Source: Phoronis australis (Eukaryota; Animalia; Phoronida). From it: DNA of 64,000 nucleotides. Location of the stretch: positions 225,662 to 289,661 of the forward strand of contig NMRA01000059.1 in assembly GCA_002633005.1 (NCBI GenBank). Reading direction: 5' to 3'. This document shows, piece by piece, positions 14,297-37,863 of the stretch (position 1 is its first letter; each line of letters starts with the position of its first letter). A program made the position numbers and the translations under genes. The notes below the pieces were generated by a model. The model searched no databases, was not told the DNA's origin, and was given only the letters and a program-made list of their open reading frames with translations.

Positions 14297-14342
<46 letters not shown>

Positions 14343-17300: not shown

Positions 17301-20300
17301 CTCACATTATCCCTCTTTACTAATAACATTTTGTTCAGTTTTAAACTCATCCACAAATTTCATTGCTTGAAGGTTGTAAACTGCTGACTACTTACGGGGG
17401 TAAGTTTTTATTGTGTTCCCACAGACTAGAGCGGTTGACATTAAACCAAGGAAAGACATTAGCCATTTGCTGCAAAATACAAAAACATGAATAATGAACA
17501 AAAACTTCAAATAATAATGAGAGATCGTCTGAATCATTTAGGGTCATACTACTACAGTACACTGCAACAATAATCAGACAAAAAACACTCCCCTTCAAAA
17601 CCGGTAATGACCAGTCATGACTGGTAATGACCAGTCATGACTGGGCATTCTATATGTTGTGATGGTGAATTACACTTGTGCCCAGCCATTCTGACAGGGA
17701 ATCCCAGGTCATTTTGTCTGATTATTTTAAGTGGGTACAGCACATATTACTCCATCATCTGCCAAAGCATGGTTTCGTGAGGAATACAACATAAGAAATT
17801 TTACAGTAAAAACTCCTATAAGGTTGGCTTTGTATGCTTACTAATTCTTGTCGAAATATTTTACAAAGACTGATGAAAAAAGGAAAATTGTTCTATTGCC
17901 CAAATAATAACTAAGGTGTGTATTCATGATCATACTATTCCAGACATTTTATTTTGTAAACAGTCTACAAATGCCATATTCTCGTCTCTTTGTAGTTTTT
18001 GTTTTGCCCTTCAACCAGAAAAACCAATTTTGGTTTATCACACATTTTGGTGCCTTGGCCCAGATCAACTCAGACAAGTTGCCCTAAAAACAATTAATGG
18101 CAACGCATTTAGTAGCACTGAACGTATTGTTGAGATACTGTTTCATTGTTATCAGTATCAATAGGATTACATCAACAATACTGATGTGTGCACCGTCCTA
18201 GTTATAATTTATGAGTACACAGTCCAAGTTATAACTGGTGTGTACACAAGCCTAGTTATAAATGATGTGTACACAGTCCTATTAATGACTGATGTGTACA
18301 CATTCCTAGTTATAAGTGATCTGTACACAGTCCTCGTTACAAGTGATGTGTACACAGTCCTAGTTATAACTGTGTACACAGTCCTATTTATAACTGATGC
18401 ATACAGTCCTAGTTATAACTGATGTGTCACAGTCCTAATTATAACTGATGAGTACAGTCCTCGTTATAACTGATGTGTACACAGTCCTAGTTATAACTGA
18501 TGTGTACGCAGTCCTAGTTATAACTTATCCACAGTGAAAAAGAACATAAACTCACTGACTTGAATCAAACTCATTAGGGTAAATCACAAACCTTAATGAA
18601 CATTGACCGAACAGAGCTGGTGTTCTTTCGCAGGTTGCCGGGCAGTGATTCATTTTTCAATGCCTTCTGAATAATTCGCACCAAGTCATCATTGAATTGT
18701 TCCTGTGGAAATAAAAAGACCAACTACGATTGACAACCACCAATTAAAGCGACCACATACATTGTAATTTAAGACACATTTTAGTTAGAAATTATCGTTG
18801 ACAACCTGACAACTAAGTAACAAAAAATGGATTAGGTCATTTACTCTCATAACAAATTCTCATAACATTCATTAACATTATGAGCATTCCTTAACATTAT
18901 GAGCTTTCATTAACATGACGAGCTTTCATTAACATGACGAGAATTCACTAACATGAGATTTCATTAACATGATGAGCTTTCATTAACATGATGAGCATTC
19001 ATTAACATTATGAGCATTCACTAACACGATGAGCTTTCATTAACATGATGAGCATTCATTAAGAAACATGATGAGCTTTGATTTCAATTACTAACAACAA
19101 CATGAAAACCATCAGCGACTCAAGAAAATGTTTCTGAGTTTATTGACGTTGGCCAACACTAAAAATGCAATTTTGGACGCATGTATGCATGCTCTGGTTT
19201 GGAAATTGGCCAAACCTAAAAATATGAGTTGGAAAACAGCACATGGATGTATTTTCTGGTATGGAGATGGGCCAGGCGTAAAATATGAATTGGAAAACAG
19301 TGCATGTACACATTTGCTGCGACTTGAGTCAGTAACAAAAGTAGAATCCTGTCACAGTAATGAATATTATGAGACTCATTACATAACAGTAAAAGGCCTA
19401 ATTTAATATCGGTTTTACATCCAGATAAATAGGGTGAAATGGAGCTTTAACAGTGGCAAACTACTGGTTTACATCACAACACCTACTGTGTAATTCAACA
19501 TGTTTGAGTTGGCAAGAAGTCAACTTTATTTCAGTCAACTACGAATTGGTCAATTTTCAATAACATAAATCATCACAGCAAAAACTATTGTGGAAAAGAT
19601 CACATAGGCACAGTCGATCATACAGGCACCGTCAAAAGCACAAGAAGTAGTAAAACTAATTTACTCTTTAATGCTAGAACAAATTTGTTGACTTCTGAGT
19701 TCTCTAGTCAATTAGTTGGTTACCTCATGTTAAATAAAAGAACTTAAAACAAACATATTTCACATCAACCTACTTCCTCTATAGTGTTTGCTTCACTTAC
19801 ACTTTTACACTGTGAACTGCTGCAAGAAGTCAACATGACTAAGAGAGCTAGACTAAAAATAAGCAATGACTAACAACAAGCAATGACTATCAAACAGATC
19901 AAATAGAGCAGAATTGTTGACATCAAGACCTAGTTTGGCTCAAGAAGGAAATATATTCACTGTACCCCTTATGGAGCATGATGGCAGGGCTTTAGTCATG
20001 TCTGTGAAACAGAATGAGGTGATACGCTTAAGCAGAGTGGACACGCATGAACATATGTATTTAAATATTCTGGTGAATGTCAACAAGTGGGAAATTCTGA
20101 ATCTGTTGCAAGATGCGGGACTAAGCTTCAAAAATCAGGACAGTTGGCAAATATAATATTGGTTGATAAGACACGTCATTAAATACTTCAACTCACCACT
20201 GTTGTGTAGAGACCAAGTAAAGCTTTGTTCATCACAGTCTGCAAATCATATGGATTACTGGCTTCCCCACTTCCTTTTTCAGGTGTGGAAGGGAGACACC

Positions 20301-23300
20301 TGGCGAGCCGTACCTGAGGTAGCGCTACAGATGTAGACAACACCACCTGAGTAGATGTCAATGATGGTGAAGTAGTTTCCATAGAGCCAGAATGTTCAGT
20401 GTCATCTGTAGCCTTCATCAGACATGAGTCTGACTTACCAGGGTTAGAGCCAGAATGTTCAGTGTCATCTCCAGCCTTCATCAGACACGAGTCTGACTTA
20501 CCAGGGTTAGGCAGCACAGTATCATCAGAGACAGCATTCAGAACATTAGTCATCACGAGATTCTGGGAGTCTGAATTATTATCAACCTCACGTAATAATA
20601 AACTATTTGTTTCTATTGTTGCACATCTTTTCTCAATGTCAACCATACCAGTCTTACTATTGCCCAATGAAATCTGACTAGCTTCCATACTGCTATTACT
20701 TTGGTTGCCAGTCCTTTCTGATACAGTATTGTCAGTCACATGATCAGTCATGTGACCGCAACTAGGGTTAGTCTTGGTAGCATTGGAGACTATCACCTCA
20801 CTCCATTGCACTTGAGTATTGCTCAGCTCTCTTGAACACGTATTTTGTTTCCATTCACTGTCAACATTGTTCTTGTCCGACCCTGACTTACTGAGTTCCT
20901 CCCCCGTGCTACACAGTTCTTCTTTGTCCGAACAATCAGAGTCGTCATCCTCCTCAATGACCTTAACCGTGGCGCCTGACCTTAGTTTCTTGACCTTGGT
21001 CTCCTCCAGTGTAATCTCAGGCATCTCAAATACATTCCTGTAGATCATCTCGGGCTCAGATTTTGCAGTTTGCACAGACTTCAACTGAAACATGGTGAGT
21101 ACATAAAGGATCAAAAGAAAGTAGTCAACAGATGGCGCAATAATAAAAACAGTGCGTACAAGCATACCTTCTGATTTCAAAAGCTCGCCATGAAACTGAC
21201 CAAGAACACGGTTAGATAAAAAATTCTGAAAAATACTGATAAGTATATTTCCATGACTAGAATAATGATTTAGTCTCCAATTAAACTAACGAAGAGAAAC
21301 ATGTGAAAACAATAATAAAGTAATTTGGATTACGATTGCAATGAACACTAATTTACTATTTGTCATAATTACAATTATATCCCAATATACGATTTGGTAC
21401 ACTGAAAAGAACATCAAAAATTTAACGCTATGTGCGATTCAACAGAGCACAAATACCATGACAGTGAGACATAGGTGTCTCGATAACAGTCTGTGATAGA
21501 AAATATTATAAAACCTGAAAGTCTTCACCACAACTGTGTCTAGTGAGAAACATTATATTGATACTCACCACAGATGAGAATTTTTCCGTAGTCACCAAAT
21601 GTTGGGCACATCTGGCCCCTACAAGAGCCTTCATAACCGCAACACAGCCTTCTTGAACCTGCTTGTCCAACGTGGGGCGCCACAGGTCCATGCCAGTGTC
21701 TGGACAACAGTTCTTGCACGTATACTGGATGACCTCTTCAGGTAGGTATGACAAGATCTCGTACATCTCATCTGCAAACAGACCAAAATACTTAAGTAAC
21801 GTATTGGAGACCACAACTTTGTTATTGTTACTATGTGACTCAAAGAAGCATTAATGATGATAATTACGCCAAACATATCACATCACAGAAGAGTCTGCCA
21901 GCCTAATACATTGAACACACAATTGTAATATGTACTGTCACTAAGTGAAGTTTGAACATAAAGACAATGTCTATATTTGTTATCAAAAGTTGGAACACTA
22001 AGACAAATTGGAATGGTATAAGTAACATTTCAATATAAGAACAATTATTAGTGAACATACAGCATTGGTACAGGAGCTGGATTATGATCCAACAGAGGTC
22101 ACTCTACTAGTTTATGATCCAACAGAGGTCACTCTACTAGTTTATGATCCAACAGAGGTCACTCCACTAGTTTATGATCCAACAGAGGTCACTCTACTAG
22201 TCTACTAGATAATAAAACTGCTCTCAGACAGCTTTTGATTTGCGTCAGTTACGCAACTAACATTCTGCTTATTGACAAACACATATAACTGTTCACTCAA
22301 CACATGTTATGAGAAGGAACTACACATACCTGACATGTTCTCACACTTGGCATGTACCCTGCTGATACATACCTGACATGTTCTCACACTTGGCATGTAA
22401 CCTGCTGATACATACCTGACATGTTCTCACACTTGGCATGTACCCACGCCTCACACTTGGCACACTGTACCATCTTACTCTCCCAGTCATCATCCGAGTA
22501 GCACTTGCAGCAGATGGGGCAGTAGTTACCTGTCAAATATACAGCAGAGTCAACTAACATCTACTCACAATGAGGCAGCAGTTACCTGTTCAATATACAA
22601 CAGATTCGACGAACATCTACTCACAATGAGGCAGTAGACAAACATACAGCAGAGTTGACTAACATCTACTCACAATGAGGCAGTAGACAAATATACAGCA
22701 GAGTTGACTAACATCTACTCACAATGAGGCAGTAGACAAATATACAGCAGAGTTGACTAACATCTACTCAGAGTTGGCCAACAATGATTAGTGTTATCAA
22801 AGGAGCTGCCACTCTCACACATCTCCATGTATGCAAGAATAATCCTGCACTGCACCTTTGCAGTATGGACACATAAAAATACAATTTCAGCAGTGCAATA
22901 TCTGGTAGTCAAAACATTGGTTGCCAACCTCAAGTTGGCAAATGCAAACTCAACATCATTAACAGGCATTCCTTTGATGCCCTACTGGATCCAGTTCCTT
23001 CTTTACAGTAACTGTGTCCAATACTGAAGACTCCTAACACTAAAGAAATGGAAATATGTCTTTGACTTATGTTATCCATGTCTTGCACTTGTATTTTTAT
23101 TTTTTGTCTTGTGTTTGCTTTCATGTTTTTCTTTTATTTCTCTGTACTTGTGTGATTCTAATAAGCTTATTATCATTATCGTTATCATTGTTGTTATATA
23201 GAAGGCAGGTAAGGCACACAATCTCACTAACTCACCTTTCTGCATCAACTGTCCACATTCATAACAGAGAGAGAAGTCATACGTCCAGGAGCCTGAGGGG

Positions 23301-26300
23301 CCAGGTGTGGTGGCTCCACAACTACGACACTTGACACATTTACTACACACCTGAGATTAAATAAAAATGAGCTCTAATCAAAAACAGTATAACTGCTTGT
23401 TTTCAACTCCGAAATATTTTTTTCTAATTGAGTGAGTTATCTTCACAGCAAATTGCAGCTTTCAATATCGACATAATACACTTAGTTTGTGCACAGAATG
23501 TATTATTGTATCACTGACACTCTCTAAAACAGGATGCATATTTGTTGATCCTTCAAAGAGAAACAATAGGGGCAGATCACTTAGAGACAAAGCAAACAGG
23601 ATATATAAATATACGTAGCGACAGCTATACACAGACTGTTCAAGCTTCATGTTCAGAAAACAAAATCCTGACTGGAACTAAAAATAAGCTCAGAAAATCA
23701 CTACAGTCTCACAACTCACAACCATTATTTGATCCACAATTACAATAATAATGATTATGATGATGATAACAGTAGTGGGGTCATTCTTGAATACTTAGTG
23801 CTATTTTGAAATTTTTACAATAAGAAAACATGAGGATAGTCCAAGACAGGACTTACCCAAATATTTTTCTTGGTCGGTTTAGTGGGATACAGAGGCCCTA
23901 GACACTGTGGGTGATAGTGTTCATGGCAACGGTCACACTGCAACAGTTTCTGAAATAAACCAATATATGTTGATGTTGGTCAATCACTGTTAGTTCATTC
24001 ACTACATTCTAATGACCACCTTCAACACTGGCAGTTATTAACAAAATAAAATGAAACAAAATCAGACCTGTGTATCGCCAAACTGTTTTGGAGTATTCTG
24101 CATACCAGACTTGAAGACTTTAGTGAAGGTTGGATGATGGTAGTGAATATTCATAGAAGCGACTTCATGATTCACGAATTGTCATGTGACTGAAAATGGC
24201 TGACAACACAATGTCCACAGCCACGCCAACTTGAGTTATTTTTTAATCAAATTTAAGAAGCAGACATCATTTTTGAATTTTTAATCAAAAAGCAAGCACC
24301 CGCCTTCCATTTTAACGCTACACTCATCATTTCCATTATGCAATAGTTACAGAAACAAATGGATTAACTAAGTTGATTTGATGTGTATTTTTGAAGTCAA
24401 TACACACTTGCATACTACTAGTCAATTTCTCTGCTACTACGCCCGTTATACATATGATACACAGGTCTGCACAATAAAATGAAATGGTGCTGTCTAGAAG
24501 ACTTACATGTTACATCTGGTACAAAGGTCTGCACAACAGAATGAAACGGTGCTGTCTAGAAGACTTACATTTTACATATGGTACACAGGTCTGCACAATA
24601 AAATGAAATGGTGCTGTCTAGAAGACTTACATGTTACCTATGGTACAAAGGTCTGCACAATAGAATGAAACGGTGCCGTCTAGAAGACTTACATTTTTCC
24701 TCAGTCCACACACACTGCAGTAGCGACATTGTCGACAACACCAATTGGACACATCATCACTCTGCGGTCGCTCAGTCTCCTCCAGGCAAAACTCGTGAAA
24801 TGGCTCACAACAGATTGAGCAGAACAGAAACTATAAGGATAGAATGGCTGTGTGTCAACAATGGATCAACAAATGTAGAGAAATGGCTGCGTTCTCATTA
24901 ACAGACACAGAGAGTCTTACAACTACACTTTACACCTACAAAGAATATGAAACAAAAACTGTAAACATGCAAGCTAAACAAGTGATGTGAAAAACTTTTA
25001 TAACTGAATGTCAAGTCGTCAAAAATGAAATCTAATGAACTCCCCAACTAACCATAAAGGTCAAGGACAATTTACAAATGGCAAATACCCTCTAGCAGCT
25101 AAGCTTTGATTACAGTCCATCTCCTCAAGTTTTCAGGTCACCATAGACACTTGTTTACTGTATACAAGGGCAGGAGGACTTACCTGATGTTTACCAGCAG
25201 AGCCACACAGGTAACACAGTGTTCTGATACACATGGGTGTTGATGCAATGAGGGCCATACCATGTAACCAGGCAGTGTCTACATTATAGTCATCCTACAG
25301 AGCAACATTAATGAATCATAGAGTTACAAAGTAGACACACAAAGTACAATGACGTGTTAAAACAATGTTTGTTAGTTACCACAATATGTTTATTCCCGCC
25401 AACCAAACAGTTTTACTGAAAATGTCAATTCGCAAAAAATGACGAATCATATACTTGCCTTATGTGACTTGACAACATTAAGACACAACTGTAGAGTTGA
25501 ACAACAGACAGTATACGTTTACCTTCTTTAAACTATTTGACCAATTCTTTATCATCTCATCATTATACAAATCACCTTAAAGTTGGCCATGATCTTATGT
25601 TCTTTCCTCTTTGTCTCAAGATGTTTATCTTCCTTCTCTGACTCAAACTGCCTCACTATCAGGTTCTGACTATCCACCTTGTTCTTATCTGCCATCTTCT
25701 CTGCCTGTAACGTGTCACTCCCATGTATATATATATATATATATACCATAATACAGATGTGAATTTTATCTCCAGCAAAGGGCTTCAATAATTCATGAGC
25801 TACAGAATATGCACAACCAAAAAATCTACAGAATGGTACATAACCCTTTGTGATAAGATCTATATGACGGTGCAAAACCCATTGTAACAATTAGTGCTAT
25901 CCAAAGGAAGAAACTAGTCTATTTATTCACCAGAATCTGCAATGTGCATACATGTAGCTAAATTGTATCCAATTCCAAGTATAACAGAGACCACACTTTA
26001 CAGCAAATTGCTCCATCTAACTTTAAACAGATGCCAAACTTTAGAGGCTCTGATAGAAGATAGTGACAGTAACACACCAATCAACTGACAGTATACGAAA
26101 GAGTGACTATACACAAAGACCATGCAAGGAATAATTATCACTCACTAGTCTCTGGTTTTTTCTCTGTAAAAGCAATGTCTTCTTTTTCTTCAGCACATCA
26201 TCCATGTCCGCTTTCGTTTGACCTTTGCGTGACACGTTTTCATCCAACTTTACATCAGTATCAACCTCCCGCTGAGCATCAGTAAATCGGAATTCAATGT

Positions 26301-29300
26301 TTTGTCGAGCCCTCTTTGCTGTCTCATTTACTAAAGGGCTTTTATCTTTGCTTTCTTCAACAACTGGTGTTCGCTTTACTTTCTGTTGCCGTGGAGATTT
26401 TTCCCCAGCGTTCTCTTCAGCGTAGTGCGGATTTGTACATAGACGCAGACTTTAAAGATCCAAAAGTTACAATGAAAACAAAAAAACTTAACAAACATAT
26501 CAAAGGTCTAGACAATGTTGAAAGACTTGATCAATGCCAACCAGTCAACCAGGTTTGTTGCAAAGAAAAATCTGTGGAAGATTAACAAGTTGACAAAAAT
26601 GCGACATAGCAGGGATGTAGGCACACATGGTGCAGCAGAAGTACAGTCATACTTTTAGAGTTGTTTTAGATGTTCAGTGGAAGACTTAACAATTTTATTA
26701 TTGCATAAAACTACCACAAGAGCTATTTAACATTAACTATGGAAACTTTATTTTATAGAAAGTCAATAAACTATTAGAATTATAAATAGAAACCAACAAA
26801 GCAAAGTGAAGAAATAAGTAACAACTGTTTCAAACAACGATTCTATGTCTATTTCTAACACATGTAGCTTGCTAATACAACATTGGAGTTTAATAAATAT
26901 ACAAACTATAGTTGCAGATAATGTAAGCAGTTGGAAAGATTATACAGAAGATACAAAAAACACAAGAATAATTCTTATGAAATCAGTCCAGAAACTGAGC
27001 CAGCCATCACAGTTAGGGTCAAGGTCATGGTCAACGTCACGGTCACCATCACCACTAGTCAAACCACAACACTGAGTGGGTGTACATGGTTAGCAGCTCA
27101 GTGATAATGTTCTCTTGATTAGGAATTTTTCTTAAATGCATACTTTGAACAAAGTGTTAACACAAACACACAACAAAGTCGTTAAAGGAGAATGCCACCC
27201 GATTTAATTAGTTTTTTTTGCCCTCTTGATCAGTCTATATCCACATCGCCTCGCATATGGTCGACCTTACCTTGCCAAGAGGTGTCGCATTAACCTGTGA
27301 GGAAGGTGAGAAACGACGCTAGCGACGTCAGTGGTTCATCTGCAGAGTGAATGCCGCTATGTTGCGGTGCATCGTTCCCGCTTGTCTGAACTATGCAGCT
27401 GCGAGAAAAGCGGGTATATCGTTTGTTTCGACTTCCTTGAGAGACCGAAATGCTTAGGAAGTGGCTCGTGGTAGTGAAGAATGAAAAGTATGCTATAAAT
27501 AGCAAATATGAGGCCGTGAAACATCTCCGTGTCTGTGGCCTGCAGTTGTCGACAGTGCCTGATGAATGCCGGCTTACTATCCAATCCATACGTTCCGTTG
27601 TCTGAGCTTGTTCACGGCGCCTCTCTAGTATTTCTTCATCACTGTATTCCTGTTCGAATTGATAGCCCGTGAAACTTAACGATCCACCCGCTAAGTCTCC
27701 GTAGGGATTGACTGATGAGTTCTCATCTAAGTCAGGATTGCGAGTTGCCATGTTGATGTTTATTACTTAGCGTTCTGTTTCAAAATTATTATTCTCATCC
27801 TAACCAATACTTATATAAAACTGAAACAAAGTCTGCCTCATTAGATGCAATTTGTAATGCCTTTGGAGTGTTCGTGAAAGCAAAGACTTGAGAAGCCACC
27901 AATGAATAAATCACTGCGTTAACGGCTTTAGGTGCAATAAAACTAATTGACGGGACACCGAGGCCGTGTGAGCTCATGCTAATTTAGTGTTTGCTGGCAG
28001 AAACTGTTGTGAAACAACTCAGTCGATTTCCACCCCACGGCCTGGTGTTAGGGAAATCTTTATTCACATTTACATTACTCAAATAATGATTGTCAATGTA
28101 CAACTTCGGCCCTAAAGCAGAACCTAAATTCGTGGCTCCCGACAAGAAAGTAGATTTGCAGTTTCGTGGGTAATTCACCAACATAATCACGTGCGCATTA
28201 CTTTGGCTCACTAGTATAGTATTTTCTTGACTGGAAGTTTAGTTTCCAACTATGGCTGGTTTATGTTCGTGATGTCTGATCAGTTTCCGAGCCACTGAGC
28301 AGGATAGCGAGACAATCCGGCCGGCCGTGACGGGCCTGATCGGGCTCCGAGCCACTGGCCAGGATAACAAGCGTTTTGTGTGTTTCGAACTCAAAAACAA
28401 CACAGATCTGGGTTATCCTGTCCATATCTCACGAAAAATATTTCGAATTTGTCTCCGAACAGACCCCAAACTCCTGCTACGGACCTTATTGGTCTGCGGA
28501 ACTTTGTAGGCTATGGTGTGTCCAAATACCAATAAATCCGTAACAGCGAAATATAACAACATGTTTTTATAAGAACGCGGTGTACTTTTAAGGGTTTTAC
28601 ATCGAAGTTTGATGATTTATTGGTGTTAAACGATGAATTCAAGCGATAAGCTGACACCAGTTACCCGTGTTGTGAACTGCTGAACAGATTGCGTGTGAAA
28701 CCAATTACGTCATTGGATAATTTCAACACCTCCGTCTGCCGTCAGGTGTCAGGTAACGCAACCGTACGTGCCGTTATGGAGCAGAACTACTTGATCTAAA
28801 TTGATAAAAATTAGGTTGTTTTTTGGGTGGCATGCTCCTTTAAAACAATAGGTATGTCAGGCACTGTAATTAGGACAAATCCAGGTCACCAGTCCAATTA
28901 GCCCGACATGCTCTGTGATGTAATTGTACCAAATTAACAATGACAAGTAATCAGACTAAAATACTGTGTAATGTATTATAAACAAAGATTGGTTTTAAAA
29001 ATGACACCATACGCCAAATGTAACAGTTACTGTTGCAATAAAACAAACTTGTATGCCAGTAATAAGTCAAATATTTTGACTTCATGAGTTTCAATTGAAA
29101 ACAACAAGTGGTTAAATAAAAAAAGCTCATTTAGAATTTCTGAAATCCACAATATTGAGGTATGGTGAATTTTTTGAAACACTACATAACTAATAAGATT
29201 CGTCAGTTTAACAGTTCTCAGTAAGTTAAAGGCAGGAAAGTCTTGTGTGTAGGCAGGAGGCTCTGTGGATACTCATAAATGATTGGCTCCACGATTGGAT

Positions 29301-32300
29301 ATGTGACAAATGGGAGGCTTTGTGATTGGATATGTGACAAATGGGAGGCTTTGTGATTGGATATGTGACAAATGGGAGGCTTTGTGATTGGGTGATTGGC
29401 ACGTGGGTGTCTCTCTTGATTGCATCACTCAGATAAAGAGGGTTCCATGACAAGAAAACAGGCAAGTGGGTGACAGTGACTAAACGACGACAGATTGAGT
29501 CACTATTCAACATGTTCAGAAATATGCACTAAAACTATAGCACACACACACAAACACACACACACACCTGTGAAAGCGAGTTATGACCAAAACCAAGCAT
29601 CAAAAGAACCAAGACAAAAAGCTACAACCTAAGCTATCCAAACTCCAACTTACTTGCACGACTGTTTTAACACACCCCGTCCGCCAAATTTTGGCATATC
29701 TCTGAAAAATTCAGCACGATATTTTAGCATGACATTCAACCTCAACTTACACGCAGGCTTGTTTCATGGTTCCTGGTCCGCCAAACTTTGGTTTATCTCT
29801 GAAATGATTAGCACAGTCAAGAAGCAGAGCCTGCACTAGGTTCACTGACATTGCGTTAAAAGATCATATTCAAAAATAGACAAGTAAAACTGCAGAGAAC
29901 AACTGGTATGGGCACTAAAGGGAAGTATAACGACGGACTTGAGAGAGGTAAACAATTGAAATAAAAACTCAATAATCATAGTAACGATATGCTACTTTCA
30001 TTTGAAGGAATATGCCAGAGTGCCATTGATTCCATTCAATCTCATCACTTGTTTACTTACAGACAATTTCTGCAGGTGCCACAATCTGGTGTGTTACATC
30101 CTTTACACTGGTTACAACGCATTCGTCGCTTGCGTCTGCCACTTGGTAACCTGGGTGCATTTTCATCAGCAGACAGCCCGACCTTGACCTTGACATCTTG
30201 ACCCACCTGTTCACTGATAGGCACCTCGTCCATGTTGTCTTCTGTAACACAGTATGCTCAACAAAATACAGCGACCTTCACAAACGTGCGCATTGCTTGA
30301 AAGCAGTGCACAGCACAACTACGAAACATGTGCCCATTTAGATCTATGAGTCTCAATATATAAAGATGTGCTTGGATCATTTAGATCTATGAGTCTATAT
30401 ATATGTAAAGATGTGCCTAGATCATTAACTAGACACGTGTCTATATGTGAAACACTTCAGTAAAACCAGGGAACCAACTCATAAACTATTTTGCAAGTGC
30501 AACTTGACTTTTCCTTTAACAATGCTACATGTTGACAATACTCAGTAGGACATACTATTAACATTAGCAAGACAAAGTCTTGATATTAGGCTCAAGACTG
30601 CAATACAAATATAAACATGTGGGCGCATAAAAATAAGACTGCATTGATGGCTCCACATTTCATGAATTTCAAAATTGACCAAAGAAATCCAAAAACAAGG
30701 AGGCAAGCGTAAAAAAGCCAAAGGTGGAGTGAAAGAGGATTGCTCACCCTTTTCCCTGGCATCCTTTTCTATAATTTTATGCTTGTACGTGTCTGGTAGT
30801 GCACTTAGATGGAACTCAGGTTTAGAATCAAACACAGCTGGTGACCCCAGAGCTATGGCTTTCTTACGACACACATGTTTGATCCGTGGTCCTCGACCTA
30901 AAGGAAAATGGAGAATAGACAAGTGGTAACACTAAAATATAGAATGAATATAACAAAGATGATGGGTCACAAAACAACATTATCTAGAAAGCAAGACGGC
31001 TTCAGCACAATTTCCTAGTCCGCATTGTTTTACACATGACTTTGGGACATTAATTACAAATCTATGCTTAGTCAAAATTGTTGGTGCGTTGAATTTCAAT
31101 TCAAAATGAGGTTAAATCGAATAAATCAAATAAGTCTAATGAAAAACTCTGAACTAACTTAACATTATATATTAATACAAACTATAGCAAACAGAAAACA
31201 GACAAAGTAATTTTGAATTCCATAATGTCCAATAATATTAATACGCGTTGAATACATTGTTTCCATATTGAACTCTCAGGACTATTTTTAACAGCGCCCT
31301 CTGCACTCAGACATGGAAAGTACAAAGAGTAGGTCAATGTCGATTCAACGTCGCTAACGGGCTTGATCATAAAACTTTCCAACAATAGCGTAAAGTTCCA
31401 AAATGGCAACACTATAAATAACACTAAACATGCAATCAGGTACCAAACATAACATCTGGTAAAAAACTGTTACTTTTAACACTTCTGTCTCAGTTTTATT
31501 TGTTACAATATATCGTCTGCAACTCAGGTGCCAATCCCTCGGTAACTAAAATGTTGAATATAGATGGTAATTACTTTCAAAAATGTAAGAAGTTCAGTGC
31601 GCAGTTACTGTTGTTGTCATCTTTGTTATCTCTTTTCAAGTCATAAATCATTACATTTAATACTGTTTTTTTACTAAAGTAAACTTATAGCATCACGCGC
31701 AAGTACATACACTACAGGTTCTGATACGCCACATAAAGTCTGGGTGAAGTATTTCAAAAATGTACCAAATAATCAAAGAAACTAAGAGCTTGAAGTATTG
31801 AAGTATAAAGGATGAATGCCTTCGTTCTCAGTCGATAAGTAGAATAAGGTCGAGTGGGATCATGATATTATTTCATTTAGGCCACTCACAGTATGTTTTG
31901 TGTACTTCTAATGAAATGACAAGTATTGTTAATTCAATACCTGAGGAGGCAGATGCCACACTACTGGCNNNNNNNNNNNNNNNNNNNNNNNNNNNNNNNN
32001 NNNNNNNNNNNNNNNNNNNNNNNNNNNNNNNNNNNNNNNNNNNNNNNNNNNNNNNNNNNNNNNNNNNNNNNNNNNNNNNNNNNNNNNNNNNNNNNNNNNN
32101 NNNNNNNNNNNNNNNNNNNNNNNNNNNNNNNNNNNNNNNNNNNNNNNNNNNNNNNNNNNNNNNNNNNNNNNNNNNNNNNNNNNNNNNNNNNNNNNNNNNN
32201 NNNNNNNNNCCATAGGTGGACAAGTACTTGCGGTAAAACTTGCGACAACTGTCACAACTGGGAACACCATAATAGAGGCCATTACTTGACATACACAGCC

Positions 32301-35300
32301 GAAGGTGACCGCACACTGCACATCCCACCCCTGAAAATACGACAGCCACTAAAGTAATTCACAAAGAGTCTTCCCTAGCCCAGGAAGTTGCAAGGTAAGA
32401 ACAGGAAATGGCCGTCAACAAAAAAATTATATTTGCAAATATCTGTCGTTTAAAGAATGTTCACCATTTATTTTTGCATTACTCGAGACATAAACTAGGT
32501 AGACCCGTGTCTAATTATAAAAAATCCTCCACATAACCTTACAGATCAACAAGCACCAAATGATCCTACAGTTCCCCCTGAGGGCCGTAACTGGAACTGA
32601 CACAGAGGTGCTCTACTTTGCAGTGGACAGGACAGGGCAAAATGACATGCATTTCAAAGTCAAACTATGAATAGATCTTACTTTATGTGTTTGAACACAG
32701 TGGATTTGCTCCTCATCAGTTACAAGACAACCAAGAGTCAGTCATGTCACCTGACCACAAACTATAGTTTTGTAAACATCATAAATTCCGTGTTATGTTG
32801 CGTTGGCATAAGAATGACATTCAAGCAGAATTGTGATCCAGGATAGTCAACAATACAAACTAGACAATAGCTAGTAAAACTGCAACAGCACAGTGCCCAT
32901 GTGTCAATTACATCCAACAGCACTGTGCCCATGTGTCATTTACATCCAACAGCACTGTGCCCATGTGTCATTTATTTACATCCAACAGCACTGTGCCTAT
33001 GTGTCATTTAGATCCTGTTACAGCTGTACATGCACAGACAATGTCACGTTTTCAACACAGGTTGATGACAAGTGAAAGCACTGGATCACAGTCCAATATT
33101 TGAAAAGCGCGAGTTTTTCTGCCCTTCTTCAAGATGATTGAAATACAGGTATGTGCACTTTTTATTCATTGGCTCTAAAAAACATTCTGAGCAAAGTGAA
33201 CCTAATGTACAAGTAGACATAAGTAACTTAGTTGTTAGAATTGTAAGAGGAAAATTAGGGTGTGAAAACATGATGAAAAGTTTGAACCATCAGATTCAAC
33301 GTCAGTTATACTGGTGAAGTACTTATTGATTATAAGTTAATATTTTTCAGGAAACGATGCAGTGGAACCACGTCATGTGGCTCCCTCTATTGCACATCAT
33401 TCAGTGTTCTCCAAGACCGCTTTCAATGTGTCGCAGCGTCCTGTTTGGCCGAAGGCACATCCTGTTTAAATGCCCCGCGTCCTGTTTAAAAATGCCGCGA
33501 CCGATTTAAAAATTAGACCAGTTTGGAAAAATGGCGTCGGCATTGTTAATAAGGTCTTCATTGGCTCAAACAATGCTTGACAGCAACTGCCCATAGCCCA
33601 TTGAAAATGATAAATAAGAGCTAAGTGGTCAATTGTCGAAAAAATAATCACGAATCTAGCTCAAGCGGCAGACTGGGCCGCTCGTCTATTTATGGTGCAA
33701 TGTCGCTTGTAAATAATTGCTCAATCATCTTTTGGGTGACCCGAATTTTATTTTCGTAGTACATTTTTCAATATTCCGTGGGCCCCACGACACTGGTCTG
33801 ACTTACCGACGCCAGTCTCAACCTTTGCATGGAAACGCTTTTGATGACTCTTATTGGTTGTTGTTTGGCATTTCTCACTTGGATGAATATTATTGGTTAC
33901 TATTGGTGCATTGAGACAGATTGAGCTCATCTTATTGCCTTCTAGGGAGTTTTGTTGGCAGCTTGAGCATTATATCTGTAGCCCATACTCCCTCTGAAAA
34001 CCTGCTAAGCCAATCGCAACTAACTCACCTTACGTAGCGGCGTGTGCGACGTTTGCGGTTTCGGGGGAGTAATGCCGAGATTTGAGACAGCTAGTTCAAT
34101 AATATATGTCTCGCGGTGAGAAACTGTAGCCAAAATCACGTGCTCTCATTGAAAGCGCACGGTAATATCTTGCGTAATCTCGCAAAGTCTAGTCTGGCTT
34201 CAGTTACTGATTAACATGCACATTCTACATACTTAGTAATGTCGTCTGCCGTGTGAAGGCGTAGAAAGACTGCGAAGAATCATTTTAAAAACCGAGAGAT
34301 GTTTCAGATATTGACAATGACTCACACGCCGATAAGACAGATCCACATGGTGGCGACACTACCAAATCGCAAATATCCGTGCCATTAACGGTGGACTGAA
34401 TTTTTTTCAACTGACAACATCCAACATCGGCATTCTTACAATTCTCTTGAACTTGAGAATAAATAGTTCTCAGCTGGAACAATGAGTTGGTGACAATCCT
34501 GAAAATTGTGGGAATGCCGGAGTTGCAAGTGTATAACAATCCAGTCGATATCTTTCTAGAAATATTGCTTTTCATCAACAGGCCTAACACTCCTGTCCAT
34601 GTAAATGGAAAACGCACGTTTACTCCACTTTATTCATGATGCAAGACTCGCATATTGTGCACTTTTTACAAGAATTTTGGTGGTGCACAGGTTTAGTGTT
34701 GTACCAACTTCAGAACATCGAATTCAGACAGACAATGTGGGCCGGAGTATTGAATATAAGAATGCTGTGCAAGACATTAGACTGAGAGAAAACGTAGACT
34801 TGGCTGTCAACACATATAAAAATGCGACTGGCTTTACCAAGACACTTCACTCGGACGGTCTACTTCGTGGGAAAAGTTTAGCTCAATGTTAGACTTTTTG
34901 GACTTGGTTGACAGTGACATCACAAGAATTAAGCAAAATATTTCCGCATACTGTTTCAAACACGTCTGCGTAGACTTGCATTTCAAAGTCATTGACTAAA
35001 CAAATGTTTTTTGTGATATGTTTGTGAATAAGTCCACTGCCACCTTTTAAAAATAAAAAGTTGAACAAACATAGTTATTTTTTGCACTACTGTGCATTAC
35101 TAGCCTACTGAGAGCGTTGACTGTCGCGCGGTTCTGGCATGTTTGTAGCAGTTTTTACGCGCACGACCTGCTTAGATTTTCAGATGTGGAGAACACAGTG
35201 ATTAAAATCAAGTAAGATATGATCACAAGCTTTCAATAGTTTTGATTGAACAGCTACACAACAATCTGAACCATTTTTGGACGTTTGTACAATGAGAACG

Positions 35301-37863
35301 CTATCAAGATCTAACAATTAACTCTGCTTAGTAAGTATGAGAAGTACGTCATCTCACCCTCATGGGACAGATTACTCTTCGCGGCTCCTTTCACTACAGT
35401 CTTGTCTGACTGCACCTGTGTTTTTTTCTTCAGCAGTTGTTGTTTCGCCTTCTGAACAATCTTCAAGTATTTTTTGCTACCACATCGCTTCTCGTCTACT
35501 TTCCTTGTTGTTGCTGTTTCCCGGGCAAACCGAATCGCTGAATTTTCATCCAAAACCTGTGTGAAAAATAAGCAGTTGCAGTCACAAAACACAGAACTTT
35601 AGGTAACACTCACTCGCTCTGAAAAATGAACAAAACAATGTTTAGTGAACATGATTATGCTTTGAATAAATCAAAGTAATTTGTACATAAGTCAATGGTT
35701 TTGTCCAAATCTATTCTAACTTCACCTCTTTCCGTTTTCCAGATTTTCGTTTATAAAGTTCTGGAGCACCAGTGGTCAACTTGTTCACCAATTTCACAGA
35801 AGGCTTCCTTGACCTTTTGCCCTCAGCAACATGTGGAGAGTCCAGTAATGTAATGGAATTCTGTTCATCATAAACAAATAATTTAGATGACTTCTCAGGT
35901 GTTGTGCTGTTTCCAATGGATACATCCAAGTTGTCTGAGAGTGGCTTCACTCGAGTGAACACAGACCGAGACTTAAACTCTTCCTCAATAAAACGCTTTG
36001 ATGGAATTATCGTCCTTGATGACCGTGAACTTTTTTCGGGAAGAACAAATTTATGAGGGGTCCTTTTGTGTACAATTGTTGGTGATGGACCATCTGGCCC
36101 ACTCTTATGCTGTGCTTTAGTCTTAGCCAGTTTGTTGTACTTATCACCAATCTTCTTGCCAGGAAGGACTCCCTTAGCAGATTTATTTTCCAAATATTTT
36201 CCAGGCACTTTTTGTAATCTCTGCAACTTTTTCTTCTCTTTGAGTTTGAGCTGCTTTGCCAACTTAGCCCTTGTATTTTCCTTCAACTGTTTCTTCATTT
36301 TCTGCATCTTCTTACGTTTAAGTCTCTTGACTTGCTCAGAAGATTCAAAATCTGAATCAGATTCAAGTTGATACAACACTGCCTTGACTGATTTCTTCTT
36401 CTTTTTCTTTTTGTGTTTTTTATCTTCTTTCTTATACTTTGAAATCAAATTACTCAACTTTTCATGCTTTTTAAACACCAACCCTGGCTGTTTGACTTTG
36501 TACTTGGCCTTGAATATTTGCTTTTGAGGTTTAACTCGTGTCTGTGTTGTGGGATCACTAATGTCTATCATGGAACACTTGACAACACCCTTTCTAGCCT
36601 TCTGGGCCAGACCTTCTTCAATCAATCTTTTATAAGACTTTTGCATGCGTTTCCTTTTGCCATCTGGTGTCGGCTGCAGTTGGAGCTTTTCCAATTCAGG
36701 ATCTTCCTCATCATCAGTTATTTCAACCATTTTCTCGGCCATTTTGTACATCATGTTCAGACGTTTTTCACTCTGCCGAATTTCCAAATCAGTGAATCCA
36801 ACAAACTCATCTTCCTGCAAAATATACAAATGATTAATGTGCATGTAATCCTTTTAACACGTTTACAACAATGGGAATTAAAATGTAACTAAAGTCAGTT
36901 TTTAATGATATTCCTTGCTGTTCTACCAGTCATTCCATTAGTCACTCCTGTACTGCAAGCTGCTTACAATCACCCTTTGGATAAAAAGAGAATTACTTTG
37001 AGTTATGACCACTTTTGGATATAACATTGGTCTCAACTCGTTCCTTGAACTCAGATGAGTAATGATATATTGGCTATAGTGACAATTGTGTAGTGAGACC
37101 ATGCTGTGTTAGTCTTCCTATAGTTATCTGGCCTGGCTAGTGTTGTATCACCAGCACATAATAATGTTGTAGACGTGCTTCTAGTGAATCATGTCAGCCT
37201 CCGTTAGCCACTCACTAATGGGCAATTGAATGGTTAGCAAGCTTGCCAATTTTATTGGGGTCTCTGCTCTGGTTCAACGCGTAATCTCGGAAAATACTAC
37301 AATAGCACAAAACCCGGCCATTACACTCCTTTCCTTTAGACTGTCTATGGTGCATTCACTGCAGAGACTTTTCTAACAGGGTTGACATATTTTGTTGTAG
37401 GTGCAGTGATCTAGGCCCAGTTGCTACGTGCTCTCACAAGGATGATTGAAATAAACATGCAGAAATGAGAAATTAATTCACCAGACGTAGACGATATTTT
37501 TCGTCTTGATTAAAGTGAGCAACGTAAAGTAACTTTGATCTTAGAATGATGAAAGGGGGATAAACATTGTAGTGAAACATAGTTGAAAATCCATCGAGCA
37601 CAACTTCAATAATTCATTCATCTCTATCACTCAATAAACCATCAACTGGTCAACTGTCTCACTGAAAACGGGCCCAACACCATGGGAGACTTTACCTCAT
37701 CTGAAGCACCAAATAGTTCATAAAACGTAACAAGACCACGATGCACATTAATCAAGATTTCAGTCTTCCCATCTGCCGATTTTAAGCCATCATCGACAAC
37801 GTATTTGGGGTCAGTTCTGTCAAATCTCGGACCAGGTCGGCCAGGAAAACGTAAGCTCGCCAT
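501..37863 (-). CDS. trx: Trithorax / MLL1-2 (KMT2A/B-type) histone H3K4 methyltransferase gene, multi-exon, 3'-truncated at the window edge (FYRC/SET not in window)
   Basis: 33 GT-AG exons with continuous phase. Diagnostic motifs in order: RFPGRP (menin-binding), FxGF (LEDGF-binding), GPRIKHVCR, CXXC with KFGG, PHD1-3, atypical bromodomain, ePHD (WVHVNCALWSAEV), FYRN. Confidence 0.97.
1509..1643 (-). CDS. trx: trx exon 31 (KARPTHKS...DKRP)
   Basis: tttcag|G and AG|gtattg, phase 2-2. Confidence 0.72.
2016..4651 (-). CDS. trx: trx exon 30: AT-hooks (RGRPPK, AGRPRK) and large P/S/T-rich region
   Basis: 884-aa ORF; ttccag|AAC and AG|gtgggt. Confidence 0.9.
4774..4900 (+). mobile_element. Possible tRNA-derived SINE head
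   Basis: A-box-like TGGCTCAGCAG and B-box-like GGTTCAAGTTC about 45 nt apart; does not form a full tRNA. Confidence 0.4.
5442..5680 (-). CDS. trx: trx exon 29: C2HC zinc finger (FRCSKCQAEYRTKQSRDRHAQSC)
   Basis: cattag|GC acceptor; donor AAG|gtgatt at 5442, with an in-frame alternative GAG|gtgagg at 5556. Confidence 0.82.
6352..6408 (-). CDS. trx: trx exon 28 (SAKKDAKCDAEDEECEQE), putative
   Basis: ttgtag|TT and G|gtaatg, 57 nt, phase 1-1. Confidence 0.65.
6959..7330. other. Assembly gap (N run)
   Basis: Run of N. Confidence 1.
7331..7812. mobile_element. Helentron-associated (HINE/DINE-1-like) non-autonomous repeat
   Basis: CCACTAGGTGGC and AAATTTCATGAAAATCC modules, (GGAC)n microsatellite, terminal hairpin TGCGTCCACATAT..ATATGTGGGCGCA followed by an A-run. 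Confidence 0.55.
8128..8184 (-). CDS. trx: trx exon 27 (LRASAVRLAEEVDENILK), putative
   Basis: tttcag|GA and G|gtttgt, 57 nt, phase 1-1. Confidence 0.6.
8200..8455. repeat. 28-bp tandem repeat
   Basis: Unit AACCATATCTTACAAAGG(T/A)GATATTG(A/G)T, about 9 copies. Confidence 0.9.
9290..12283 (-). CDS. trx: trx exon 26: large low-complexity exon (about 998 aa)
   Basis: 1037-aa ORF; tttacag|AT and G|gtaaga; phase 1-1. Confidence 0.9.
12567..12805 (-). CDS. trx: trx exon 25: FYRN (CARVYWSTSDFRRRTVYTCRV)
   Basis: ctccag|C acceptor; donor G|gtactt inferred from the phase of the next exon. Confidence 0.88.
13290..13368 (-). CDS. trx: trx exon 24: FYRN (GSLTVECLG...LIPVGF)
   Basis: tatacag|GT and AG|gtagga; a duplicated acceptor lies 30 nt upstream. 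Confidence 0.92.
13657..13777 (-). CDS. trx: trx exon 23: ePHD-FYRN linker (FSVLRRVCIN)
   Basis: ttgtag|CCA and G|gtatgt, 121 nt. Confidence 0.9.
13937..14095 (-). CDS. trx: trx exon 22: ePHD/PHD4 (RCNVC...GATVGCC...NFHFMCS)
   Basis: attcag|AGG and CAG|gtaagc, 159 nt. Confidence 0.96.
14298..14340. repeat. (AAT)n microsatellite
   Basis: Direct reading. Confidence 0.95.
14430..14785. repeat. About 32-36-bp tandem repeat
   Basis: Unit ACACTGAGTGAGTGTTCATTCAAAGA(T/C)CAGA. Confidence 0.9.
14795..14932 (-). CDS. trx: trx exon 21: ePHD (EAGRLLY...WVHVNCALWSAEV)
   Basis: ttacag|GAA and TTG|gtaaga, 138 nt. Confidence 0.96.
15141..15435. repeat. 50-bp tandem repeat, about 6 copies
   Basis: GTGAGCAAGG recurs every 50 bp from 15141 to 15391. 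Confidence 0.95.
15600..16140. mobile_element. Second copy of the HINE-like repeat family
   Basis: CCAAATTTCCTGAAAATC, GGACGGAC and GCATAATGCGCCCAC motifs shared with 7331-7812. Confidence 0.45.
16469..16608 (-). CDS. trx: trx exon 20: start of ePHD (DNRRCLLC...GD)
   Basis: atttag|CC and AAT|gtaagt. Confidence 0.9.
16852..17000 (-). CDS. trx: trx exon 19 (NAILPPTVDHTYAQW)
   Basis: cttcag|A and G|gtgagc; conserved MLL motif. Confidence 0.92.
17396..17469 (-). CDS. trx: trx exon 18 (QMANVFPWF)
   Basis: ttgcag|CAA and CC|gtaagt; resembles MLL1 QMERVFPWF. Confidence 0.92.
18180..18525. repeat. About 27-bp tandem repeat
   Basis: Unit ACTGATGTGTACACAGTCCTAGTTATA. Confidence 0.9.
18592..18702 (-). 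CDS. trx: trx exon 17: bromodomain (EQFNDDLVRIIQ...VRSMFIK)
   Basis: ccacag|GAA and AAG|gtttgt, 111 nt. Confidence 0.92.
18865..19080. repeat. About 19-20-bp tandem repeat
   Basis: Unit CATTAACATGATGAGC(T/A)TT. Confidence 0.9.
20197..21084 (-). CDS. trx: trx exon 16: long low-complexity bromodomain loop insertion ending PYDLQTVMNKALLGLYTTV
   Basis: tttcag|TTG and GTG|gtgagt, 888 nt. Confidence 0.9.
21569..21771 (-). CDS. trx: trx exon 15: end of PHD3 and start of atypical bromodomain
   Basis: DEMYEILSYLPE...YTCKNC matches MLL1; ttgcag|AT and GTG|gtgagt. Confidence 0.94.
22082..22201. repeat. 30-bp tandem repeat, 4 copies
   Basis: Unit TTATGATCCAACAGAGGTCACTCTACTAGT. Confidence 0.95.
22325..22445. 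repeat. 43-bp tandem repeat containing the exon 14 end and donor site
   Basis: Copies start at 22325, 22368, 22411. Confidence 0.92.
22416..22529 (-). CDS. trx: trx exon 14: PHD3 (GNYCPICCKCYSDDDWESKMVQCAKCEAWVHAKCE)
   Basis: tgacag|GT and G|gtatgt, 114 nt. Confidence 0.95.
22518..22775. repeat. About 49-56-bp tandem repeat derived from the exon 14 acceptor region
   Basis: Unit AATATACAGCAGAGTTGACTAACATCTACTCACAATGAGGCAG, about 5 copies. Confidence 0.9.
23236..23350 (-). CDS. trx: trx exon 13: end of PHD2 and Cys-rich linker (VCSKCVKCRSCGATTPG)
   Basis: tctcag|GTG and G|gtgagt, 115 nt. Confidence 0.95.
23857..23949 (-). CDS. trx: trx exon 12: PHD2 (LLQCDRCHEHYHPQCLGP)
   Basis: tttcag|AAA and TGG|gtaagt, 93 nt. 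Confidence 0.95.
24458..24695. repeat. 62-bp tandem repeat containing the exon 11 GTAAGT donor, 4 copies
   Basis: ACTTAC at 24501, 24563, 24625, 24687. Confidence 0.92.
24693..24830 (-). CDS. trx: trx exon 11: PHD1/PHD2 (CSICCEPFHEFCL...WCCRQCRYCSVCG)
   Basis: ttatag|TTT and AAT|gtaagt, 138 nt. Confidence 0.95.
25184..25294 (-). CDS. trx: trx exon 10: start of PHD1 (LCYLCGSAG)
   Basis: ctgtag|GAT and CAG|gtaagt, 111 nt. Confidence 0.93.
25576..25704 (-). CDS. trx: trx exon 9 (...EHKIMANFK)
   Basis: ttacag|GCA and AAG|gtgatt, 129 nt; resembles MLL pre-PHD1 HRIRVDFK. Confidence 0.85.
26146..26449 (-). CDS. trx: trx exon 8: last Cys of CXXC (LRLCTNP) plus linker
   Basis: Phase-2 entry at ctttaaag|T, open for 101 codons to CTA|gtgagt. 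Confidence 0.82.
27186..28839. mobile_element. Internally deleted Kolobok-type DNA transposon
   Basis: TIRs AGGAG(A/C)ATGCCACCC at both ends, TTAA on both flanks (27182-85, 28840-43), degenerate THAP domain on + strand and KolX-like ORF start on - strand. Confidence 0.85.
27359..27552 (+). pseudogene. Degenerate THAP zinc-finger fragment of the Kolobok transposase
   Basis: MLRCIVPACLN...GIS / FRLP*ETEMLRKWL...LRVCG, with a frameshift and a stop. Confidence 0.75.
29293..29390. repeat. 31-bp tandem repeat, 3 copies
   Basis: Unit GATTGGATATGTGACAAATGGGAGGCTTTGT. Confidence 0.9.
29654..29701 (-). CDS. trx: trx exon 7b: CXXC DNA-recognition loop variant B (DMPKFGGRGVLKQSC-N)
   Basis: 48 nt; gaatttttcag| acceptor; AA|gtaagt donor; phase 2-2. 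Confidence 0.88.
29751..29798 (-). CDS. trx: trx exon 7a: CXXC DNA-recognition loop variant A (DKPKFGGPGTMKQAC-V)
   Basis: 48 nt; tgctaatcatttcag| acceptor with branch-point-like CTAAT; GT|gtaagt donor; phase 2-2. Confidence 0.9.
30061..30241 (-). CDS. trx: trx exon 6: N-terminal half of CXXC zinc finger
   Basis: Hand translation RRKRRMRCNQCKGCNTPDCGTCRNCL; donor CT|gtaagt, phase 2. Confidence 0.93.
30748..30897 (-). CDS. trx: trx exon 5: SNL2-like motif
   Basis: GRGPRIKHVCRKKAIALG...LSALP matches the MLL motif; tttag|GT and G|gtgagc. Confidence 0.93.
31941..32330 (-). CDS. trx: trx exon 4 (spans N gap): nuclear-receptor-type C4 zinc finger
   Basis: CAVCGH...YYGVPSCDSCRKFYRK; ttttcag|GG acceptor; frame resumes after the gap to CAG|gtattg. 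The gap could hide an intron. Confidence 0.75.
31969..32209. other. Assembly gap (N run) inside trx exon 4
   Basis: Run of N. Confidence 1.
32884..33010. repeat. About 31-bp tandem repeat
   Basis: Unit CATCCAACAGCACTGTGCCCATGTGTCATTTA. Confidence 0.85.
33402..35198. mobile_element. Probable hAT-type DNA transposon relic
   Basis: Ends CAGTGTTCTCCA / TGGAGAACACAG (near-perfect TIR); internal decayed CCTNFRTS motif resembling the zinc finger of ZNF862-like hAT transposases; no clear TSD. Confidence 0.5.
35358..35556 (-). CDS. trx: trx exon 3 (KIVQKAKQQL)
   Basis: acag|GTT acceptor, G|gtgaga donor, phase 0 to 1. Confidence 0.85.
35726..36814 (-). CDS. trx: trx exon 2: EDEFVGF LEDGF-binding motif, Lys-rich region, SNL1-like motif
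   Basis: ttgcag|GAA acceptor, GAG|gtgaag donor, 1089 nt; KFVLPEKSSRSSRTIIPSKRFIEEE resembles MLL1 SNL1. Confidence 0.92.
37696..37863 (-). CDS. trx: trx exon 1: MASLRFPGRPG... menin-binding motif and start of LEDGF-binding region
   Basis: ATG at 37863; RFPGRP resembles MLL1 RFPARP; donor GAG|gtaaag, phase 0. Confidence 0.93.

Follow-up and report, generated by a model that had tools for sequence, protein, structure and literature searches.

The window, that is, the whole 64-kb stretch of Phoronis australis DNA analysed in this study, carries on its minus strand a gene of the trithorax (trx)/KMT2 family that extends on to lower coordinates (Table 1). The predicted product has the following domains, in order from the start codon: a C4 finger, the CXXC finger, PHD1-3, the bromodomain region, the ePHD and FYRN. 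This order, judged up to FYRN, and the grouping with relatives of KMT2A/B identified the gene as a trx/KMT2A-B orthologue. In a tree of 457 columns, it fell within the lophotrochozoans and outside the mollusc clades sampled, on a long branch. Exon 6 matched Pfam zf-CXXC with an E value of 1.6e-4 over half of the domain, which is under the curated cut-off, and its best PDB match was the CXXC finger of KMT2A. Exon 8 was placed with an inferred AAG acceptor at 26449, and the RNA depth there was low.

Several other features of the window were recorded. The C4 finger is of the nuclear-receptor type (Pfam zf-C4), its exon abuts an assembly gap, and C4 and CXXC fingers also occur together in several mollusc trx proteins. 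The final part of the PHD3 exon, together with its donor, is seemingly repeated just downstream in the intron, as a possible alternative donor. The intron after exon 7b holds a multi-copy element of about 1.66 kb that is deeply covered by RNA and has loose read ends at either border; its terminal inverted repeats are flanked by TTAA on each side, and we take it to resemble a non-autonomous DNA transposon of the Kolobok or piggyBac type. The same intron contains a 31-nt tandem repeat of about four units. Elsewhere, two near-identical 360-nt stretches, 933 nt apart, represent a tandem or an assembly duplicate, and an exon that presumably encodes a calponin-homology domain belongs to a neighbouring, divergently oriented gene.

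Table 1. Features of the window (positions are those of the 64-kb stretch)
Feature	Position	Strand	Description
trx/KMT2 host gene	12560..37863	minus	tblastn with named KMT2 proteins; extends on to lower coordinates
C4 zinc finger exon	32210..32358	minus	nuclear-receptor type
Exon 5	30748..30897	minus	carries the trx/KMT2-specific GPRIKHVC motif
Exon 6	30061..30241	minus	CXXC finger cysteines 1-6; phase 2 at end
Exon 7a	29751..29798	minus	48 nt, phase 2/2; CXXC recognition loop, GGP type
Spacer intron 7a-7b	29702..29750	minus	49 nt; putative steric role
Exon 7b	29654..29701	minus	48 nt, phase 2/2; CXXC recognition loop, GGR type
31-nt tandem repeat	29277..29400		intron downstream of 7b
Multi-copy element	27182..28843		intron after 7b
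Exon 8	26146..26449	minus	last base of loop codon and eighth cysteine; placed by frame and xRxC pattern
PHD3 exon end and donor, apparent repeat	22344..22430	minus	possible alternative donor
Calponin-homology exon (presumed)	49617..49970	plus	neighbouring gene
360-nt stretch, first	58560..58919		near-identical to the second
360-nt stretch, second	59493..59852		near-identical to the first

The sequence-only reading had placed two exon variants of the CXXC loop side by side in this gene, and our analysis confirmed this arrangement, with both exons in frame and the finger intact. Exons 7a and 7b are both bounded by CAG and GTAAGT and are identical at 32 of 48 nt; being adjacent, homologous, equal in length and phase and intact at their splice sites, they have the properties of homologous exons. 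The spacer between them is short in comparison with the other 13 modelled intron spans of the gene (159-3204 nt). A splice-anchored motif recovered only the 7a and 7b sites in the window and none in 100 shuffles. Moreover, no third copy of the loop exon was found in the 64 kb, where the next-best ungapped match to 7a or 7b reached 26-27/48. The model of exons 5-14 was free of stops with either loop exon and retained the eight cysteines of the finger. The modelled loop sequences were DKPKFGGPGTMKQACV for 7a and DMPKFGGRGVLKQSCN for 7b, the final residue of 7b being N rather than K, given the inferred acceptor of exon 8. Eight cysteines, KFGG and KQ or RQ, which characterize Type-1 ZF-CXXC domains (PMC3685328), were present in both modelled isoforms, and the best PDB match of 7a was the CXXC finger of KMT2B (4pzi).

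Metagenome contigs were scanned with the splice-anchored 48-nt motif, which gave 63 loci, the mini-exon size being set by the design of the scan; judged from these sequences, the 48-nt loop mini-exon is widespread. A tandem pair was present at three of the 63 loci (L004, L043 and L053; clam-like), with spacers of 55, 56 and 70 nt, respectively, and in each of them the GGP exon came first and the V10 exon second, as in the window. L004 and L043 were identified as trx by their flanking exons, with Mya as the nearest match. The contig of L053 carries no flanking exon, and its second exon is like that of L004 at 42/48 nt. The remaining 60 loci had a single exon and comprised 21 of GGR type, 24 of GGP type with KK, 10 of L003 type and five others. 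L054 was treated as a probable chance match. The locus-fragment trees were poorly rooted, and seven loci with too few columns were dropped from them. Word-based protein searches with the CXXC region returned nothing in one case and only abalones in another, and a search with the PHD region was used instead.

Trx exons 5 and 6 accompany both the GGP and the GGR single-exon loci and are distinct in the two types. For eight of the 21 GGR loci, the upstream intron could be searched in full and contained no second loop exon (the contigs of the others lacked exon 6); at all 24 GGP loci, the following 300 nt or more were likewise free of one. Among 36 record-prefix groups, all 10 that held two loci contained one GGP and one GGR locus, which indicates two separate trx genes per host with one loop type each. 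These protostome paralogs are candidates for splice isoforms that were split between gene copies, and their loops suggest, at a level that is not significant, that the GGP and GGR paralog exons descend from the 7a and 7b types. In Mytilus, the isoform breaks fall exactly before the D of the loop and after the 16th residue. In three Mytilus species (P0198, P0315 and P0318), a six-residue alternative first exon is joined directly to the loop exon, and these short-start RefSeq isoforms yield a trx protein without its N-terminal portion and CXXC cysteines 1-6. In Lytechinus variegatus, two neighbouring trx models (P0053 and P0158), placed on a contig of equal length, share an identical loop, as a local duplication or an assembly artefact.

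We lean, with slightly better than even confidence, towards the following reading: 7a and 7b are a mutually exclusive pair that is probably old in Lophotrochozoa, and their likeness to KMT2A and KMT2B reflects shared ancestral residues together with a toggling site. In this scheme, 7a would keep the ancestral GGPGT loop and 7b would represent a lophotrochozoan GGRGV loop. The loop of 7a matched the GGPGT loop of the L003-type loci at 14/16 residues; these loci are trx by their PHD1 exons, lie beside the sponge outgroup on a long branch and are probably non-bilaterian. The loop of 7b matched the GGRGV loops of scallops, oysters and mussels at 12/16. Furthermore, 7b was closer to metagenome locus L060 (38/48 nt and 14 of 15-16 residues) than to 7a (only 32/48 nt and 10 residues), and the first exon of L053 was closer to the GGP single exons (35 nt and 12 residues) than to its own neighbour (26 and 8). 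Since an ancestral and a lophotrochozoan-wide loop adjoin each other in the order of the clam-like pairs, one old duplication is the simplest explanation. Most lineages would then have kept one loop exon, and one protostome group would have retained both types in separate trx paralogs.

The principal rival, which we regard as serious and on the whole rather unlikely, is that the mini-exon is a duplication hotspot. Pairs would have arisen independently in the window species, the clams and the acorn worm, each of them mutually exclusive, and the GGP/GGR contrast would have evolved repeatedly, including in KMT2A/KMT2B and in the metagenome paralogs. Its weight comes from the excess of codon and flank similarity, from a 7a+7b clade that was not rejected and from the rarity of pairs. 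Of 10 synonymous codons, seven are common to 7a and 7b, where the average across lineages is 0.43 and 5% of 135 pairs reach this level. In the splice flanks, 14 of 20 positions agree, compared with 6.7 on average for 120 pairs; when the flanks were aligned locally and tested against shuffles, the result did not reach significance (p 0.25 and 0.50). In L004, a 13-nt motif is common to the two acceptors (p 0.001). Such likeness within pairs in codons, flanks and acceptors points to younger duplications or gene conversion. On nucleotides, the 7a+7b clade was not rejected (p-AU 0.37) in a 48-nt tree that was mostly unresolved, and two loops occurred in one of the 13 multi-record invertebrate clusters compared, with the Gigantopelta isoforms left out. 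In addition, the pair of the acorn worm Ptychodera is 13/16 identical and hemichordate-like, so that it looks lineage-specific, and every tree tried requires 16 or more changes at position 8 and 21 or more at position 10. Against recurrent duplication, it would demand that several residues of 7a went back to the outgroup state, and the exon order is identical in three distinct pairs. The tree in which all pairs are independent also fitted worst (151 steps versus 136-140, p-AU 0.03-0.06, on 16 columns and with classes assigned with hindsight). Likewise, the second exons of L004 and L053 are nearly alike, as given above, while both first exons retain the ancestral A14.

The sequence-only reading had also compared the two exons with vertebrate KMT2A and KMT2B, and it proposed that an ancestral splicing switch may have been partitioned between MLL1 and MLL2 or, alternatively, that the loop types arose by convergence. 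The human loops that it gave agreed through the seventh cysteine with the PDB chains of KMT2B (4pzi, DKPKFGGPNTKKQCC) and KMT2A (2jyi/2kkf, DKPKFGGRNIKKQCC); the loop-final V was seen in pangolin KMT2B (P0064) and the final K in human KMT2A (P0346). The residue matches are real: 7a agrees with KMT2B at P, T and V, and 7b agrees with KMT2A at R. Over the 16 residues, 7a had 13 identities with KMT2B and 10 with KMT2A, 7b had 10 with KMT2A and nine with KMT2B, and the comparisons of 7a with 7b and of KMT2A with KMT2B gave 10 and 13, respectively.

These matches were examined in other animals. The P, T and V of 7a also occur in the outgroup-like trx exon L003, P and T in sea urchin and brittle star, and P in KDM2A, KDM2B and FBXL19, which argues that they are ancestral states and not specific to KMT2B. 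Moreover, 7a matched L003, freshwater mussel, scallop and sea urchin at 13-14/16, which is at least as well as it matched KMT2B. The R of the loop site was present in all 87 KMT2A-type loops read among 90 proteins, and it also occurs in a crinoid, a nemertean and many molluscs. Of 17 KMT2B-like proteins, 14 had P, two had R and one had K at this site; five of the 17 were named KMT2B by their source, among them the two with R (from manta ray and caecilian), and the three with R or K included the only shark-group protein. N9, K11 and C14 are common to KMT2A, KMT2B and amphioxus and are absent from both window exons.

With regard to gene structure, C1170 of human KMT2A (c.3509) belongs to exon 5, and c.3570 is the first position of exon 6 (PMC10070943), so that the intron upstream of the loop is absent and the downstream intron is kept. 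The phase-2 intron after the loop occupies the same codon in the window gene and in KMT2A (K1190, c.3570), and the intron that would be expected before D1175, if KMT2A and KMT2B had separated two flanked exons, is missing from KMT2A. Position c.3052 of KMT2B lies in exon 7, and KMT2B, we presume, likewise has no intron before the loop. The comparison of introns with KMT2A bore out the shared downstream boundary and not the upstream one. The tree of the 16-residue segment did not reject the partition, nor did it reject the alternatives in which KMT2A and KMT2B are sisters: the AU tests, run on 16 columns with three models, left all five old-duplication trees of either kind unrejected. The survey of deuterostomes was also divided. 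A single loop in non-vertebrate deuterostomes would have spoken against the partition, and Ptychodera has two loop variants, both of them GGP-N; amphioxus, in contrast, had one GGF loop in 17 of 17 protein records.

The partition, in which the pair dates from the bilaterian ancestor and KMT2B kept the GGP exon and KMT2A the GGR exon at the vertebrate genome duplication, appears improbable to us. It draws on the 13/16 identities between 7a and KMT2B, on the existence of a deuterostome pair, on the loops of brittle star (14/16 with KMT2B) and sea urchin (also KMT2B-like) and on that of the crinoid Anneissia (GGRNV..CCK), which is like KMT2A. The partition trees were also one to two parsimony steps shorter than the matched non-partition trees, with p-AU values of 0.22-0.77. 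Eleven cases of isoform separation have been documented (PMC4494069), and a similar split is suggested in the metagenome paralogs. However, the matches of 7a to KMT2B are ancestral, N9, K11 and C14 unite KMT2A and KMT2B with amphioxus, KMT2B flips to R or K in three of 17 proteins, amphioxus has one loop and those of the acorn worm are both GGP. Furthermore, KMT2A has no intron before D1175, which, with KMT2B presumably the same, would require two independent losses, and with two of three models the non-partition tree had the better likelihood, by a non-significant margin of 0.6-1.2 lnL. Sixteen columns cannot decide the question, and the evidence of gene structure and outgroups leans against the partition. 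The proposed partition gained no positive support, as the matches are ancestral, R is recurrent and KMT2A is without the upstream intron, and convergence fits better. A wider form of the idea, to which we assign an equally low probability, is that a trx loop switch of the bilaterian ancestor is still present in lophotrochozoans and the acorn worm and on two occasions became fixed as separate genes, in a protostome lineage and as vertebrate KMT2A (GGR) and KMT2B (GGP). If this were true, part of the targeting difference between MLL1 and MLL2 would be older than the two genes.

Several observations suggest that 7a and 7b are likely spliced as mutually exclusive alternatives, the stronger ones being comparative, from the acorn worm isoforms and the tandem pairs at three metagenome loci. 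In Ptychodera flava, the four RefSeq isoforms form two pairs, X1/X3 and X2/X4, which differ at three residues only, all within the 16-residue loop segment; in these protein models, each loop occurs in two of the four isoforms and both loops together in none. For the window gene, three raw RNA runs, matched by species label, were aligned over positions 25400-31300, a region crowded by the transposon. On the expected strand, the depth was low in exon bins, and most of the intron bins that are free of the transposon had little RNA or none. The 7b bin contained about 89, 171 and 47 letters on the expected strand (all three runs) and the 7a bin 0, 276 and 0 (one of three runs); unspliced RNA could be the source of this depth. 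No joint of 7a or 7b was found among the joints listed for the three runs.

Exon 6 would be joined to either 7a or 7b, and the chosen exon would then be joined to exon 8. The spacer has candidate branch adenines at distances of 27 and 40 nt from the donor of 7a, and the steric threshold for vertebrate exon pairs is approximately 50 nt between branch point and donor (PMC7969005). With the branch point this close to the donor (40 nt or less), the joining of 7a to 7b would be sterically hindered. Double inclusion and double skipping of 7a and 7b keep the frame, whereas retention of the spacer loses it; because double inclusion is in frame, nonsense decay cannot guard against 7a+7b. The RNA structure across 7a-7b was not above shuffles (z 0.15), and a search for inverted repeats gave none that was convincing. 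As neither a frame guard nor an RNA structure was found, steric hindrance is the probable guard. The 70-nt spacer of L053 is less restrictive in this respect than the 49 nt of the window. That only one exon is used, with the other a decaying duplicate, or that both are included together, would agree with the lack of a 7a or 7b junction among the listed joints, the 7a-bin depth in one of three runs and the in-frame double inclusion, but we consider it highly improbable, since consensus splice sites, an open frame, KFGG, KQ and the cysteine are intact in 7a and 7b alike, their substitutions match states in the genes of other animals, inclusion of both would add 16 residues between two zinc ligands, and no Ptychodera isoform carries both loops (0/4).

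The segment encoded by the alternative exons contains KFGG together with the loop in which KQ contacts the CpG (PMC3685328). Both motifs are kept in 7a and 7b, which differ at six of 16 residues, corresponding to human K1176, R1182, I1184, K1185, C1188 and K1190. In 7b, M occupies the position of K1176 and R that of R1182; a lysine is lost and an arginine gained, so that the net charge is the same and the basic residue has moved. The substitutions K1176A, K1186A and Q1187A are reported to impair DNA binding (PMC9249231). Predicted from these motifs, both isoforms would still read unmethylated CpG, and the exchange in 7b would shift backbone contacts and might tune the affinity or the flanking preference of H3K4-methyltransferase targeting. 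The two exons are thus predicted, from their sequences, to give two CpG readers that differ in affinity or flanking preference. The replacement of KQ by KK, as in the first exon of L053 and in the GGP-type paralogs, would be a larger change than the 7a/7b swap. More generally, the second residue of the KQ/RQ dipeptide is K, not Q, in many lophotrochozoan trx loops (L053, L005, L063, the GGP-type loci, Pinctada, Biomphalaria, Littorina and Babylonia), and a dipeptide that ends in K may weaken or alter CpG reading.

Mutually exclusive homologous exons that arose by tandem duplication are known from 97 human genes (Abascal et al. 2015, PMC4494069), and exons 4a/4b of OGDH are such a pair (PMC7969005). 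Exons 7a and 7b resemble these pairs in being adjacent and homologous, of equal length and phase, and alternative versions of one functional loop, with a branch point less than about 50 nt from the upstream donor. They are unlike them in that the loop is the CpG-reading wedge of an invertebrate trithorax/KMT2 CXXC finger and the whole spacer measures only 49 nt. Separation of isoforms after gene duplication has been described for CALU, MARVELD3, U2AF1 and others, 11 cases in all; KMT2A/KMT2B are absent from that list, which started from human exon pairs (PMC4494069). The metagenome GGP and GGR trx paralogs are similar in that each carries one type of a pair that is tandem elsewhere; unlike the published separations, which concern long exons and supported trees, the segment here is 16 residues long and the tree is not significant. 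The window gene shares with human KMT2A and KMT2B the eight cysteines and the KFGG and KQ motifs of Type-1 ZF-CXXC domains, and with KMT2A the phase-2 intron after the loop; unlike KMT2A, it has an intron before the loop. In vertebrates there is a single loop in each of the two genes, whereas the window gene has two loops and a C4 finger of nuclear-receptor type. A literature search with few subscription journals in its coverage found no prior mutually exclusive exons for the CXXC loop in trithorax. A homologous-exon switch in the CpG-reading loop is apparently unreported so far, in a class of mechanism that is well known.

The CXXC loop governs the reading of unmethylated CpG by trithorax/MLL proteins and hence the placement of H3K4 methylation. 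Reviews describe subtle differences between the CXXC domains of MLL1 and MLL2 in swap experiments. The natural variants reported here, including the change from KQ to KK, may be used to probe CXXC specificity, which is still open for MLL1 versus MLL2. The split between the metagenome paralogs is a candidate for the separation of splice forms into duplicated genes outside the vertebrates. In invertebrates with a single trx gene, an exon that swaps the loop would provide two readers from one locus.
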